Positions 550-5,130 of a stretch of DNA of 13,245 bases are shown here, one piece after another. The DNA is from a virus (taxonomy: Duplodnaviria > Heunggongvirae > Uroviricota > Caudoviricetes). Every line of letters starts with the position of its first letter. Position 1 is the stretch's first letter. The DNA lies in the IMG/VR virus record IMGVR_UViG_2690316278_000014. The stretch is one strand, 5' to 3'. The position numbers and the translations under genes are program-made. Under the pieces are notes generated by a model, which was not told the origin of the DNA, made no database searches, and saw only the letters and a list, made by a program, of their open reading frames with translations.

Positions 550-1982
550 TTAAGTCTTTTTATCTTGCTTAAGTAATGCAATGAGTCTGTGAGAGTTAGG
601 GATTTTATGTTCATTCCCCTCCACATCTAAAATAGTTATATCTTCTAAATGACAAATATCACATTCATTATCTATCGTGACTAAGTCTGAGCTTACCAAT
701 TCAAATTTTTTTCTTTGCTTTTCTTTAATAACAATGCTCTCTTTTGGAGATGAATGGCTCCTAATGCCTTTTTCATAATGGCAAAGCATCCCTTCCAAAA
801 CTGCATCACGCCTACCAACATTGATCACTATCACCTCGATTTTATAAGGTTCCTCATCAAAAGACTCGTAGACGAGGTCAGCTGTTATTTTTAGCCTTGA
901 TCTATCATGCCATGCTGCCCTACCGGAGAAGTATAAGGAAGTACATGCAANNNNNNNNNNNNNNNNNNNNNNNNNNNNNNNNNNNNNNNNNNNNNNNNNN
1001 NNNNNNNNNNNNNNNNNNNNNNNNNNNNNNNNNNNNNNNNNNNNNNNNNNNNNNNNNNNNNNNNNNNNNNNNNNNNNNNNNNNNNNNNNNNNNNNNNNNN
1101 NNNNNNNNNNNNNNNNNNNNNNNNNNNNNNNNNNNNNNNNNNNNNNNNNNNNNNNNNNNNNNNNNNNNNNNNNNNNNNNNNNNNNNNNNNNNNNNNNNNN
1201 NNNNNNNNNNNNNNNNNNNNNNNNNNNNNNNNNNNNNNNNNNNNNNNNNNNNNNNNNNNNNNNNNNNNNNNNNNNNNNNNNNNNNNNNNNNNNNNNNNNN
1301 NNNNNNNNNNNNNNNNNNNNNNNNNNNNNNNNNNNNNNNNNNNNNNNNNNNNNNNNNNNNNNNNNNNNNNNNNNNNNNNNNNNNNNNNNNNNNNNNNNNN
1401 NNNNNNNNNNNNNNNNNNNNNNNNNNNNNNNNNNNNNNNNNNNNNNNNNNNNNNNNNNNNNNNNNNNNNNNNNNNNNNNNNNNNNNNNNNNNNNNAAGCC
1501 TGTCGTGCTTTTGGATCACGCTCGTAGGAGTTTACTGTAACTTGCTTTTTTGCACCCTCAGCGTAGTTTTCAGGTGAGGTAATTTCATCTGGAAATGGAT
1601 TAGGTAAAAAGTCTGCATACCAAACTGTTCCTTCTTTCCGAAGGTAACGTTTTTCAAGTTTTGGAGTGAACCGTTTGATAACAGCTACATCTCTATTCTC
1701 ATCGTTTCGTCCCTGCTCCATATCAAACGTGTAAAGCTCATAACCTTCAGCTATCAATTGAATGTGTTCAATAGCTTGAATATATCCAAGATTTTTTCTT
1801 TCCTTTCCCTCCACAACTTTGGTTTTCCACCGCTCCCTCAGAATGACTGATCTTTCTTGCTCTTTTTGTACATCCCATGCACCAAAGATAACCATTTTCT
1901 TGTCGTGGTTCACAAATGACCAACTCCAAGTCCAGTTACTACAAGTAGCACCATGCGACTGGATGAATTGTTTTCTGTTCAT
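550..1982 (-). CDS. Hypothetical protein, possibly about 477 aa: Trp-rich N-terminal region plus C-terminal HNH-like (His-Me finger) signature. Interior 951-1495 is masked, so this may instead be two adjacent genes (1496..1982 and 550..950)
   Basis: ATG at 1980-1982 preceded by AGAGAGGGA about 5 nt upstream. N-terminal 162 aa (MNRKQFIQSHGATCSNWTWSWSFVNHDKKMVIFGAWDV...) is open to the mask. Below the mask a different frame is open from 950 to the TAA at 550-552 (133 codons) and contains CHYEKG ... SHSSP ... NECDICH ... EGNEHKIPNSH. The frame change across the mask is uninformative because N-run lengths are unreliable. Confidence 0.5.
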
Positions 1983-2445: not shown

Positions 2446-2907
2446 TTAACGCAAGCCCTTTAAGTACTCGATCATGTCATCAATAAAGTCACCTTGTTTT
2501 TGTAGTTCCAATAGTTTACCAAACTCTTTATATGTTAGTGTTCTTTGTCCATATACTGGTGCTGGCAGTGCGTTTGGGTGTGCCAACATATACTGCTCTA
2601 TTCGTTTTGCTGCATCCGTGATCGCTGCCCCATAGTACCTGATCATACGTTCTTTTACTTGTTTCTTATTCTGTTGTACTTTAATAGCATTGATAGTATT
2701 GAATAGTAAATCATTCCGTAATTCATCTTCATTACTCAATACTGCAAACACATCATATACACTAATCTTATCTCTCACTTTAAGTTTAGCTACTGAGTCC
2801 TTCATGATGTTCTTGATGTCTTCGCATGGGATATCTTTATATAGCTTGTACTGGCTAATTAGTGCTTTTATGTTTCTGTTATCAAAAGTTGAATAGGTTT
2901 TTGCCAT
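2446..2907 (-). CDS. Hypothetical protein, 153 aa; no recognisable domain
   Basis: ATG at 2905-2907 with AGGA about 9 nt upstream on the - strand; complete ORF with TAA at 2446-2448. Protein begins MAKTYSTFDNRNIKALISQYKLYKD. Confidence 0.55.
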   Translation of the reverse strand: MAKTYSTFDNRNIKALISQYKLYKDIPCEDIKNIMKDSVAKLKVRDKISVYDVFAVLSNEDELRNDLLFNTINAIKVQQNKKQVKERMIRYYGAAITDAAKRIEQYMLAHPNALPAPVYGQRTLTYKEFGKLLELQKQGDFIDDMIEYLKGLR

Positions 2908-3001
2908 GATAAATAATCCTGTATAAATTAATTAATCGTGACCCGTAGTGATTACAGGCCATTTAATAAGTTTGGCTTCATTGCCATTGAGTTTTGAATA
3001 G

Positions 3002-3030
3002 ATGCCAGTACTGGAATACTGGCATTTTTT
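3002..3030 (+). terminator. Terminator-like hairpin ATGCCAGTA-ctggaa-TACTGGCAT followed by T5-6, contains the perfect palindrome CCAGTACTGG; function uncertain (terminator shape only in + orientation, or an operator-like palindrome)
   Basis: 9-bp stem at 3002-3010 / 3017-3025, T-run 3026-3030. Overlaps the stop codon of the HNH gene (3029-3031) and lies about 95 nt upstream of the 153-aa gene start. No convincing + strand gene upstream. Confidence 0.3.
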
Positions 3031-3583
3031 ATGGTTTACGTTGAATGGTTAGGCTTTGTATTCTTTGTCTTTGCTTATTCGTAAGATATGTTGTGTACCA
3101 TTTTGAATAGGTAGTACCTTTGAATAACTTACCTATATTCTGAGGGCAAATATTAATACCAGTTTGATTTAAAAACCATTTAGTGATTGCATATTGAGAT
3201 AATTGTCCTTTAAGGTACTCTCCAACAATCATTAACCATTGCTTTAGAGTAAGCTTTTGAGTACGAGTACCTTTATGCTTTCTATTGGAATTATTAACCT
3301 TCTGAGTTACCCAACGTAAATTTTTTGCTTTGTTATTCATTTTATCGCGGTCGATATGATCTACAGTGTATCTTCCTCCAATGGGTTTAGCACCATTGAA
3401 TAAAGTACAAACCAAAACATGTACATATAGTGATTTGCCATTAATAGAAACTTTTTTGTATCCATTAGATGGGTTTTTCGTAGCTATATACTGTTTTGTT
3501 TTATCATTGTAAACATCGCCATTTTCAGATACGTAGTAATGTTTTGAATTTGGAATTAATCTCCAAGTGATTTTAGGGTTCAT
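3029..3583 (-). CDS. HNH homing-endonuclease-like protein (NUMOD4-type N-terminus plus HNH_3-type core), 184 aa
   Basis: ATG at 3581-3583 with AAGGA about 8 nt upstream. N-terminus WRLIPNSKHYYVSENGDVYN matches the NUMOD4 pattern (Y-x-VS-x-x-G-x-V) and YVHVLVCTLFNGAKPIGGRYTVDHIDRDKMNNKAKNLRWVTQKVN matches the HNH_3 core (HR-L/V ... V-N/D-H-I/K-D ... NN ... NL-x-W-V-T). The basic C-terminal tail is probably DNA-binding. Confidence 0.75.
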   Translation of the reverse strand: MNPKITWRLIPNSKHYYVSENGDVYNDKTKQYIATKNPSNGYKKVSINGKSLYVHVLVCTLFNGAKPIGGRYTVDHIDRDKMNNKAKNLRWVTQKVNNSNRKHKGTRTQKLTLKQWLMIVGEYLKGQLSQYAITKWFLNQTGINICPQNIGKLFKGTTYSKWYTTYLTNKQRQRIQSLTIQRKP

Positions 3584-3637
3584 ATCAAACGTCCTTGTTG
3601 TTATCGCGTCACTCCATGTGATCGCGTCTGCTACTAC

Positions 3638-3946
3638 TTAGAGGCCAGTAGCATTTAGCCTATATTCATCCCTCGCCTTCTCACATACGATTAGCAAACG
3701 GTTTAAACATTCCTTATGTTCATCTTCAGCAGCCAGTACAAACATTACCATTGGTAATCCGTCGATTAGGTAATTTCCATTCCATGTAATAGTACCTAAT
3801 ACTTCTGGATCACCAATTCGTTCATAATGTGCTTCTAATGAACCTTCCTGATACTTCACACAATAGAAATAGTGATAATCCATATCCCCTACTATTGTGT
3901 AATCATCAAAATATTGTACTAAATCAAAGTCATTCTTCATTACCAC
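3638..3946 (-). CDS. Hypothetical protein, 102 aa, overlapping the end of the upstream RHH-like gene; possible partner of a two-gene module
   Basis: Complete ORF (MVMKNDFDLVQYFDDYTIVGDMDYHYFYCVKYQEG...), TAA at 3638-3640. Start ATG at 3944-3946 or 3938-3940, both overlapping the upstream gene, whose stop is at 3930-3932. Confidence 0.5.
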   Translation of the reverse strand: MVMKNDFDLVQYFDDYTIVGDMDYHYFYCVKYQEGSLEAHYERIGDPEVLGTITWNGNYLIDGLPMVMFVLAAEDEHKECLNRLLIVCEKARDEYRLNATGL

Positions 3947-4115
3947 CGCCCTGTAAAATCATGTACTGATTAATTAAGTACTGAACACAGGCTGATAATG
4001 AATCTTTCTGTACCTTCCCACTACTAATTAGCTGGTTAAGTACAAGTACTTGATCGTCATTAAGACGTGCGGTTACTACATGATGTTTGCGTTCCTTTAA
4101 AGTTACTTTTTTCAT
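3930..4115 (-). CDS. Small ribbon-helix-helix-like (CopG/Arc/MobC-type) DNA-binding protein, 61 aa; candidate autoregulator or antitoxin-like component
   Basis: ATG at 4113-4115 with AAGGA about 7 nt upstream. Sequence HVVTARLNDDQVLVLNQLISSGKVQKDSLSACVQYLI has the beta-strand / helix / helix periodicity of RHH proteins. Assignment by pattern only. Confidence 0.5.
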   Translation of the reverse strand: MKKVTLKERKHHVVTARLNDDQVLVLNQLISSGKVQKDSLSACVQYLINQYMILQGGGNEE

Positions 4116-4132
4116 TTCTATATCCTTATAGG

Positions 4133-4152
4133 TGTATTTGTATACTGTATTT
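4133..4152 (-). promoter_or_regulatory. Operator-like element TGTATTT-GTATAC-TGTATTT immediately upstream of the RHH gene ribosome-binding site
   Basis: Two 7-bp direct repeats separated by the palindromic hexamer GTATAC, 18-37 nt upstream of the ATG at 4115. RHH regulators commonly bind such short repeats in their own promoters (inference). Confidence 0.3.
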
Positions 4153-4164
4153 ATAAATCCAAAT

Positions 4165-4192
4165 TAAAAAGATACCTCTCTCGCAAGAGAGG
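4165..4192 (-). terminator. Rho-independent terminator-like hairpin on the - strand (stem CCUCUCU / AGAGAGG, UGCG tetraloop, then UAUCUUUUUAAUUU)
   Basis: 7-bp stem at 4175-4181 / 4186-4192 with a 4-nt loop; on the - strand it is followed by a U-rich tract (4165-4174). Lies about 140 nt downstream of the 4332..5130 gene and about 60 nt upstream of the RHH gene, suggesting separate transcription units. Confidence 0.45.
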
Positions 4193-4331
4193 CAATCTTA
4201 ATTAAAAAGGAAATTTATTGTCGCTATATTATTTATGTTCAAAGCTGGAGCGGAAGGCAAAACGCATTATCGTTCTGATACTATTAGTATAGCACCAAAA
4301 CTTTTAGCGTTTCATTTTTCTTACTACGTAT

Positions 4332-5130
4332 TTATTTATCGATTTGATTTTTAATGGGGAAAGCAATAGTACTAAAATCATAGATAAAAACATGAGCANN
4401 NNNNNNNNNNNNNNNNNNNNNNNNNNNNNNNNNNNNNNNNNNNNNNNNNNNNNNNNNNNNNNNNNNNNNNNNNNNNNNNNNNNNNNNNNNNNNNNNNNNN
4501 NNNNNNNNNNNNNNNNNNNNNNNNNNNNNNNNNNNNNNNNNNNNNNNNNNNNNNNNNNNNNNNNNNNNNNNNNNNNNNNNNNNNNNNNNNNNNNNNNNNN
4601 NNNNNNNNNNNNNNNNNNNNNNNNNNNNNNNNNNNNNNNNNNNNNNNNNNNNNNNNNNNNNNNNNNNNNNNNNNNNNNNNNNNNNNNNNNNNNNNNNNNN
4701 NNNNNNNNNNNNNNNNNNNNNNNNNNNNNNNNNNNNNNNNNNNNNNNNNNNNNNNNNNNNNNNNNNNNNNNNNNNNNNNNNNNNNNNNNNNNNNNNNNNN
4801 NNNNNNNNNNNNNNNNNNNNNNNNNNNNNNNNNNNNNNNNNNNNNNNNNNNNNNNNNNNNNNNNNNNNNNNNNNNNNNNNNNNNNNNNNNNNNNNNNNNN
4901 NNNNNNNNNNNNNNNNNNNNNNNNNNNNNNNNNNNNNNNNNNNNNNNNNNNNNNNNNNNNNNNNNNNNNNNNNNNNNNNNNNNNNNNNNNNNNNNNNNNN
5001 NNNNNNNNNNNNNNNNNNNNNNNNNNNNNNNNNNNNNNNNNNNNNNNNNNNNNNNNNNNNNNNNNNNNTTTTCTTTTTTTGCTTTATTTTCTTTCTTACG
5101 CATTTTGGCAATCCTCTCTTTAGAATTCAT
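4332..5130 (-). CDS. Hypothetical protein with lysine-rich N-terminus (MNSKERIAKMRKKENKAKKE...); interior 4399-5068 masked
   Basis: ATG at 5128-5130 with AGGAG upstream on the - strand. The visible 3' end in the protein-like frame (...AHVFIYDFSTIAFPIKNQIDK) stops at TAA 4332-4334. The 5' and 3' visible parts are in different frames across the N-run, so length and continuity are unverified. Confidence 0.4.

Follow-up and report, generated by a model that had tools for sequence, protein, structure and literature searches.

Small ribbon-helix-helix (RHH) regulators such as CopG (pMV158), Arc (P22) and Aca14 (PMC13551039) are about 45–60 aa long and are built as a strand, a helix, a G-x-x-S/T turn and a second helix. 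They head, or otherwise control, operons of plasmids and phages, with short AT-rich repeats or palindromes beside or over a −10-like hexamer. Aca14 is an RHH autoregulator of phage accessory operons, and its site lies over the −10 (PMC13551039). Here we describe a locus of this appearance in the virus record IMGVR_UViG_2690316278_000014, where a 61-aa gene overlaps a 100-aa gene on the minus strand. The whole stretch analysed, 13,245 nt, is referred to as the window.

The 61-aa family resembled CopG, Arc and Aca14 in its size and in the order of its predicted elements, in the position of its gene at the head of the operon, and in the short AT-rich repeats at a −10-like hexamer. Unlike them, it fell below the curated RHH thresholds, its DNA binding is predicted, and its candidate site is downstream of a strong intrinsic terminator and has no clear promoter of its own. 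The pair also has the gene order, the small sizes and the overlapping frames of the toxin-antitoxin systems CcdAB, ParDE and RelBE, and the initial annotation described it as toxin-antitoxin-like or a small regulatory module. Unlike those systems, the 61-aa protein has no neutralizing C-terminal domain, and its partner is missing from most family members and is acidic, orphan and less conserved. We interpreted the locus as a conserved RHH-type autoregulator that heads an operon, joined by a lineage-specific 100-aa passenger gene, and gave this interpretation a probability of about 0.55.

The elements concerned were the following (coordinates of the window).

3930–4115, minus strand: the 61-aa gene, for a predicted small DNA-binding protein of RHH pattern; member of a 47–60-aa family and core gene of the prophage group.
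4123–4127, minus strand: Shine-Dalgarno (SD) sequence AAGGA of the 61-aa gene, 7 nt ahead of the ATG, read from the sequence; the AAGGA type is kept in relatives.
3638–3940, minus strand: the 100-aa gene, an acidic orphan inserted between the RHH and HNH genes in one sub-lineage, with an 11-nt overlap with the RHH stop.
4133–4152, minus strand: AAATACA-GTATAC-AAATACA, an array of ATAC-containing hexamers and heptamers; candidate operator, overlapping a weak −10-like TATACA (4144–4139).
4163–4194, minus strand: intrinsic terminator, with a stem-loop at 4194–4173 and a T-run to 4163, ending 48 nt ahead of the RHH ATG.

Both open reading frames (ORFs) are real genes. The 61-aa gene was under strong purifying selection, with pN/pS of 0.04–0.32 among six alleles. 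The frame of the 100-aa gene was intact in six distinct alleles, beside at least four different integrases, and was under weaker constraint. Its pairwise pN/pS ranged from 0.25 to 2.3, with several pairs at 0.25–0.4 and some above 1, and the pooled value for five intact alleles was about 0.5; the sixth allele, L012 (the L numbers denote the loci compared), was found after this comparison.

The two frames were present as initially annotated, and the second one was shortened from 102 to 100 aa. The 102-aa ORF at 3638–3946 (minus strand) uses a GTG at 3946, two codons ahead of an ATG at 3940. From this ATG, 100 aa were called in five relatives, and P0001, the one homologue in the databases, has the same length and start. 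The true overlap with the stop of the 61-aa gene (TGA, 3932–3930) is therefore 11 nt. It was kept in six alleles, and the SD-like GGCGGTGG was also conserved. The two genes are probably translationally coupled.

Alignment of 18 family sequences (A6) gave K-x-x-V-x-V-R-L-N/T-x-x-Q…L-I-x-x-G-K-x-K-T-x-S-x-A-I-Q-Y-L-I-N-Q-Y, which is the RHH pattern. Its elements are basic residues, V-x-V-R-L as an alternating strand, N/T-x-x-Q as a helix cap, an amphipathic helix, G-K-x-K-T-x-S as the turn, and A-I-Q-Y-L-I-N-Q-Y as the second helix. The AlphaFold2 (AF2) model of the 61-aa protein (predicted local distance difference test, pLDDT, 63) contained an extended stretch at residues 10–19 and helices at 20–32 and 37–55. 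The beta-alpha-alpha order of RHH proteins (CopG, Arc, MetJ) was seen in both the alignment and the model.

Profile searches gave faint signals in the same direction. Scanning the members one by one against Pfam detected RHH_1 in two of them (best E 0.0034) and a NikA-like match in one (E 0.016), all sub-threshold. By hhalign, with manually entered reference sequences, the family was in register with NikR (34 columns, E 0.003), omega, CopG and ParD at low probabilities, and did not align with helix-turn-helix, AbrB or Rop controls. The same comparison with a shallow alignment of the family was uninformative. Taken together, the sequence pattern makes an RHH fold likely. The 'RHH-like' of the initial annotation was compatible with the A6 pattern and the AF2 segments and stayed short of proof, no curated model having reached its threshold.

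A scan of IMG/VR with the large terminase of L002 yielded 66 related phage loci. Searches with tblastn and a hidden Markov model (HMM) found diverged 61-aa homologues (28–56% identity) in 26 of the 66 and a 100-aa homologue in none. The 61-aa gene thus belongs to the core of the phage group; since it is present without the 100-aa gene in related loci, the latter is an insertion of one sub-lineage. HMM and tblastn searches of the fetched loci agreed: the 61-aa family occurred in 38, the 100-aa family in only 11, all belonging to the window's own sub-lineage. The 100-aa gene is not an ancestral partner of the regulator. In 16 diverged relatives the RHH gene was followed, after a gap of 17–87 nt, by a gene for an HNH endonuclease or a P-loop protein. 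The P-loop proteins were of two types, one of 464–510 aa (PHROG 2467) and one of 650–686 aa that was P-loop/DEAD-like (helicase-like).

The end of the 61-aa protein carried a trace of the insertion. The family ends directly after helix 2 (…QY-x-x-L-N-S-K), and the relatives are 47–60 aa long. In the window there is a further seven-residue tail, QGGGNEE, which overlaps the ribosome-binding site and start codon of the 100-aa gene. This tail is the junction made by the insertion of the 100-aa gene. In the E. coli/Shigella copies at the yeaG site (L003–L007), a stop at Q55 produces a 54-aa variant without the tail, and the 100-aa gene is intact. These variants simply restore the ancestral length of the 61-aa protein. 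In Kluyvera sp. CRP, the 100-aa gene was in fragments (several deletions and a frameshift), and the 61-aa and HNH genes were intact. The 61-aa gene there was under purifying selection despite the erosion of the other.

The 100-aa protein has a pI of 4.39, a net charge of −11 and 14% aromatic residues. Substitutions between its alleles were scattered and often charge-swapping. Structure prediction, which the initial annotation had suggested for both proteins, gave the extended stretch and two helices for the 61-aa protein and an unusable model (pLDDT 42) for the 100-aa protein, with five strands and a long C-terminal helix. The product is very acidic and, as far as such a model can indicate, probably beta-rich with a C-terminal helix. 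Polo-box-like structure matches of the model were discarded, for they reflected merely the topology of a beta-meander plus a helix.

No match to the 100-aa protein was found in Pfam, PHROG, NCBIfam, PADLOC or PDB, and so no toxin or defence family was among its relatives there. It had no credible relative among 1.84 billion representatives. Exhaustive phmmer searches returned one fragment and two spurious repeat proteins only. In a collection of 5.8 billion proteins there were only a handful of near-identical copies, and the word-indexed protein searches gave close relatives (≥88%) only. A genome-collection scan added no further locus and a metagenome scan added one. A weak tblastn match against phages (E 3–10), within a 319-aa T4-like protein, was judged to be due to chance. 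The product had initially been recognized as nothing known, and it proved to be an orphan in the library and protein searches. It is most likely an accessory passenger of a protein-binding or inhibitor type, not a toxin. A role as an antidote to the HNH protein was ruled out, as the HNH gene persists in the absence of the 100-aa gene and each of them diverges independently of the other.

The 20-nt repeat at 4133–4152, which was pointed out in the initial annotation, was exact and unique in the window, and the array was conserved in relatives; the pattern alone was common in the island. Spaced 7-mer pairs gave 25 overlapping matches (about 13 separate sites) in the 6-kb island, versus about seven expected from a Markov model. 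The heptamer was not enriched by itself. In the L030/L042 group, where the RHH protein is only 53% identical, an array of ATAC hexamers (…GTATAC-(A/G)(A/T)ATAC…) was present at the same place. It reads AAATAAC-GTATAC-GTATAC-AAAT, and is partly kept in L063; the terminators and coding sequences have wholly diverged. The repeats of L001 and L003 had single substitutions, with the central ACAGTATAC kept. Because it is conserved in diverged groups, a function of the ATAC array is supported. Such conservation is what a promoter or operator would show, and lends some comparative support to an operator-like repeat. The GTATAC/ATAC-A-GTAT part overlaps the weak −10-like TATACA at 4144–4139, where a consensus promoter is absent.

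Two other candidate sites were rejected. A 13-bp palindrome, ATACTA-A-TAGTAT, over the upstream extended −10 (see below) was broken in L002 and L003, and a clustering of ATAC-N-GTAT sites was seen in L010 and not in the other loci.

Farther upstream, two more elements were found.

4286–4315, minus strand: promoter-like site, conserved, with a −35 (A)TGAAAC at 4315–4309, a 17–18-nt spacer and an extended −10 TGcTATACT at 4294–4286.
4304–4398, minus strand: 3' portion, as far as visible, of the gene for a small hydrophobic protein, which has 57 aa in relatives; the start, at about 4477, is masked, the stop is at 4306–4304, and the terminator follows.

The upstream terminator of the initial annotation was confirmed. 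Its stem-loop (4194–4173) is followed by the T-run in TCTTTTTAAT, and the hairpin was retained in seven lineages, even though the loop has indels and a G.U pair has changed to G-C. In all lineages examined, a terminator with an unrelated stem was located 25–52 nt ahead of the RHH start. The insulating role first assigned to it was too narrow: the terminator is real, and is part of a conserved promoter-RNA-terminator unit. A 16-nt direct repeat flanks the hairpin at 4156–4171 and 4194–4209 (AATCCAAATTAAAAAG / AATCTTAATTAAAAAG, plus strand), as if insertion of the hairpin had made a duplication.

The promoter hexamers in the window are at 4314–4309 and 4291–4286. In about 20 distinct lineages (all those with upstream sequence, at corresponding positions within loci L001–L078), a −35 TGAAAC, 17 nt, and TGnTATAAT or TATACT were found 50–135 nt before the terminator. 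This promoter was stronger than the candidate between the terminator and the ATG. In the window, it would start an RNA of about 115 nt, a small RNA (sRNA) or a leader, that ends at the terminator. A CUCC/UUCC motif recurred in this RNA shortly ahead of the terminator. No Rfam match was found for the RNA, and no covariation was detected beyond the terminator. Pairing with the ribosome-binding sites of the RHH or small-membrane-protein genes was no better for cognate than for non-cognate combinations (p = 0.996, 0.73). The RNA could be an sRNA, a leader-attenuator, or both.

Within the short RNA, 18 nt (ATAAATAATATAGCGACA; 4216–4233, minus strand) were invariant in all seven close lineages, among them Kluyvera with its diverged flanks. 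A 24-codon antisense ORF under this 18-mer was considered and rejected, as it was not conserved outside the sub-lineage; the likeness of an ORF in L061 was due to the conserved promoter DNA.

A small hydrophobic-protein gene (50–67 aa, LPLKIP motif; homologues or analogues) preceded the RNA unit in 15 of the 20 lineages. The protein has one long transmembrane stretch and a basic tail, and is also encoded at L010:2398–2571 and L037:360–527, among other loci. A small membrane-protein gene next to an RNA recalls the layout of type I toxin-antitoxin systems; the pairing tests were uninformative. The promoter-RNA-terminator unit is the more intriguing feature of the locus.

In phage immunity regions, leader RNAs are placed in a similar way, namely the c4 RNA before icd-ant in P1/P7 and the CI RNA in the PLE leader of P4. 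We took this likeness as a lead only. The likeness consists of a conserved promoter and a short RNA directly upstream of the operon and co-oriented with it, and of several relatives with very little room for a second promoter. Unlike those RNAs, the one described here ends at a canonical intrinsic terminator, has no similarity to them in sequence or Rfam, and gave no specific complementarity in the pairing tests with ribosome-binding sites downstream.

Combining these results, we propose the following scheme. The 61-aa protein is most likely a small RHH-type DNA-binding regulator, and its gene is in the core of an uncultured temperate phage group with lambda-type GpA terminase and large serine integrases. 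The order at the integrase-proximal end is the small membrane-protein gene, then the promoter, short RNA and terminator, and then the 61-aa gene at the head of an operon that in relatives goes on with HNH endonuclease and/or P-loop/helicase-like genes. A dimer of the protein would bind the ATAC-repeat array (4152–4133), which is placed after the terminator, ahead of the start codon and over the weak −10 (TATACA). Such binding would autoregulate the operon, as with CopG, Arc or Aca14. The 100-aa insertion replaced the last few codons of the regulator, which created the 11-nt overlap of the two genes.

Several observations weighed against this scheme. All curated RHH models were below threshold for the 61-aa family. 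The 7-6-7 repeat by itself was not statistically unusual in an AT-rich island. No consensus sigma-70 promoter was found between the terminator and the 61-aa ATG; the best candidate there was weak (TTAATT, 17 nt, TATACA; 4167–4139), with its −10 inside the ATAC repeats. In L061 and L067, only 25–27 nt separate the terminator from the RHH start. This cannot hold a promoter plus a leader, so the RHH operon in these loci must be reached by read-through. Transcription of the operon may thus begin at the upstream promoter and run on through the terminator; if so, a site downstream of the terminator would not be a classical operator. Finally, no positive support was obtained for the role of the 100-aa protein.

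There is a different view of the locus, which we consider rather unlikely. It would be a new phage control region, in which an RNA switch gates read-through into the RHH operon, with a captured acidic 100-aa effector. The switch would be a CUCC-containing, anti-SD-like RNA between the gene for the small membrane protein, possibly toxic, and the RHH gene. It would work as a type I toxin-antitoxin pair or, by analogy, as the leader-RNA immunity of P1/P4 type. The effector would inhibit a host or competitor function, e.g. a defence system. A defence target also figures in the possibility of an Acr-like operon, to which we assigned a similarly low probability. Here the target inhibited by the 100-aa protein would be an immune protein, or some other protein, of the host, and the RHH protein would act on the 100-aa gene as an Aca-type (Aca14-like) repressor. 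A small, acidic, fast-evolving, lineage-specific orphan with many charge-swapping substitutions, tightly coupled to a small autoregulator-like gene, would suit this role, and there are demonstrated Aca regulators of RHH type whose inverted repeats lie over the −10 (PMC13551039). However, the regulator is upstream, not downstream, of the candidate effector. It is also a core gene with other genes behind it in most relatives; hence it has not evolved as the dedicated regulator of the 100-aa gene. The general library scans showed no homology to known anti-defence proteins, and no search was aimed at anti-defence families. The 100-aa gene may instead be a functionless or selfish passenger that arrived with the mobile HNH gene or is tolerated beside it, with no role for phage or host. 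This is in keeping with its slot adjoining the HNH genes, which vary between loci (two alleles, 37% identity), with a pooled pN/pS of about 0.5 and some pairs above 1, and with its erosion in Kluyvera and confinement to one sub-lineage. It is difficult to reconcile with a frame kept intact in the six alleles next to at least four different integrases, with the conserved 11-nt overlap and SD-like GGCGGTGG, and with the several pairs at pN/pS 0.25–0.4. We regard the absence of any role as improbable.

A type II toxin-antitoxin pair, with the 61-aa RHH protein as antitoxin and autorepressor and the 100-aa protein as a new toxin, would fit two small co-oriented, overlapping genes of which the DNA-binding one comes first, their adjacency and co-translation (ATG 3940 / TGA 3932–3930, six alleles), and a prophage region that also holds defence-type genes (mREase_II in L010). 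The Kluyvera locus lost the second gene and kept the first, which is the order of loss that a pair permits, and the AF2 secondary structure of the 100-aa protein (strands plus a C-terminal helix) is superficially like CcdB/MazF. However, the genes were not inherited as a pair: the first was without the second in 26 related loci, and the second was eroded in Kluyvera. The family stops at helix 2 and so offers no neutralizing segment, and the 54-aa variant coexists with an intact 100-aa gene. The putative toxin belongs to no toxin family in Pfam, NCBIfam, PADLOC or PDB, has a net charge of −11, and is less conserved than the putative antitoxin. A toxin-antitoxin pair at this locus is very unlikely. 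It was the gene distribution that rejected this half of the initial annotation; the other half, a small regulatory module, fits. That both are structural phage proteins, which had been named there as the competing identity, was not found. A module like omega-epsilon-zeta (RHH regulator, acidic antitoxin, toxin) was rejected as well: its third gene is a NUMOD4/HNH_3 endonuclease, not a dependent toxin, and the HNH gene survives intact in Kluyvera and in more than 10 further lineages that lack an intact 100-aa gene. Its alleles diverged to 37% identity, against about 90% for the 100-aa protein. The 61-aa protein might also be thought of as the recombination directionality factor (RDF) of the adjacent large serine integrase, as it is small and basic and its gene is close to the integrase gene in every locus. 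Some serine-integrase RDFs are of about 60 aa (TP901-1 Orf7, SPbeta SprB), which counts in favour. An RDF that contacts the integrase would be expected to co-vary with it. The cassette is found beside four unrelated integrases, the fourth type in L012; the two comparisons measured gave 24–31% identity between integrases, against 88–98% for the 61-aa protein across loci with differing integrases. The cassette being beside different integrases makes an RDF role the least credible of these explanations, with hardly any probability.

The autoregulator with a lineage-specific passenger remained the preferred reading, and the toxin-antitoxin candidate was removed as a false lead. An RHH gene plus an overlapping small ORF is insufficient for a toxin-antitoxin call unless the two are inherited as a pair. 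What is new here is modest, namely a family of a known kind of regulator and an orphan gene. The family consists of very small RHH-pattern proteins, has not been described, and is a conserved feature of an uncultured prophage group, of which terminase similarity brought up 66 IMG/VR loci. The gene after the regulator varies between lineages (HNH, P-loop/helicase-like, 100-aa orphan), so this position can be used to find lineage-specific accessory genes. If the upstream RNA does regulate, it would be an unrecognized control element of these phages.

The locus is in a decaying, low-GC prophage that adjoins the E. coli yeaG gene. The right part of the window belongs to the E. coli chromosome, with yeaG at 8191–9600, which thousands of genomes match at 99% identity, and yeaH after it. 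Similarity to E. coli starts at 7617, and the sequence to the left is an island of 32–42% GC. The island DNA had no match in 5,426 complete E. coli genomes, 50,697 phage records and 72,556 plasmids. In these searches with the locus DNA, yeaG/yeaH alone matched E. coli. The relatives encode lambda-type small and large terminase and tail genes, which identifies the island as a prophage or the remnant of one. The terminase of the closest cultured phage was only 36% identical. The group thus has no cultured representative, and nothing at the locus is already described.

A large serine recombinase gene (5459–7663, minus strand), partly masked and apparently frameshifted, begins the island. It is in three reading frames (7663–6635, 6654–6487 and 6481–5459), with the exact lesions under the masking; its counterpart in L010 is a single ORF of 676 aa. 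Copies at the yeaG site in other E. coli/Shigella assemblies were also decaying, with the integrase in fragments and an insertion sequence (IS) inserted. The one in L003 is an IS1222 frameshift element.

On the minus strand, the order of elements is the end of the hydrophobic-protein gene, promoter-like site, terminator, repeat, SD, 61-aa gene, 100-aa gene, HNH gene and a hairpin. By nucleotide similarity, the cassette common to close loci extends from about 4396 to 2969, from the small membrane-protein gene through the hairpin. The genes beyond it differ from locus to locus. Its last two elements are as follows.

3029–3583, minus strand: gene for a 184-aa NUMOD4/HNH_3 endonuclease (Pfam HNH_3 9e-13; PHROG 59 2e-28; PADLOC 'homing endonuclease' 1e-18), the next gene of the operon.
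3000–3027, unstranded: conserved hairpin right after the HNH stop, which ends the cassette shared between loci; a T-run is on the plus strand only.

Among known systems, the HNH gene strongly matched the free-standing NUMOD4/HNH_3 homing endonuclease genes of phages; different HNH families are found in the same slot of relatives, and neither small gene belongs to the endonuclease. At least two HNH families (PHROG 59/959 and 953/374), diverging to 29–38% identity, occupied the slot after the RHH-like gene. It is represented by 3029–3583 (minus strand) in the window and 3245–3772 in L010; most relatives have an HNH gene after the RHH gene, and the slot is empty in L043 and L067. The slot resembles a homing-endonuclease hotspot or a fast-evolving conserved partner.

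Defence-type genes were observed a few genes past the cassette (L010:5838–6644, L001:12516–13310 and window 891–1982, minus strand). The L010 gene encodes a type II methyl-directed restriction enzyme (PADLOC mREase_II, 2.9e-63; DUF6998). One ORF among these downstream genes had 92% DNA identity to a gene of Kluyvera that gave a weak match to HNH (PF01844).

A gene at 2446–2907 (minus strand) encodes a 153-aa protein (MAKTYSTFDNRNIK…), which had no match in any library searched. The position corresponds to L027:793–1254 and L059:2915–3475; some relatives have homologues there, and others encode proteins of about 155–160 aa with different sequences. Just past this gene, at 2417–2437, is a tandem direct repeat, ATGCCGTAAT-ATGCCGTAAT-A. 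Another direct repeat, GACGCGAT (3628–3621 and 3610–3603), is in the spacer that separates the 100-aa and HNH genes (3603–3628, minus strand).

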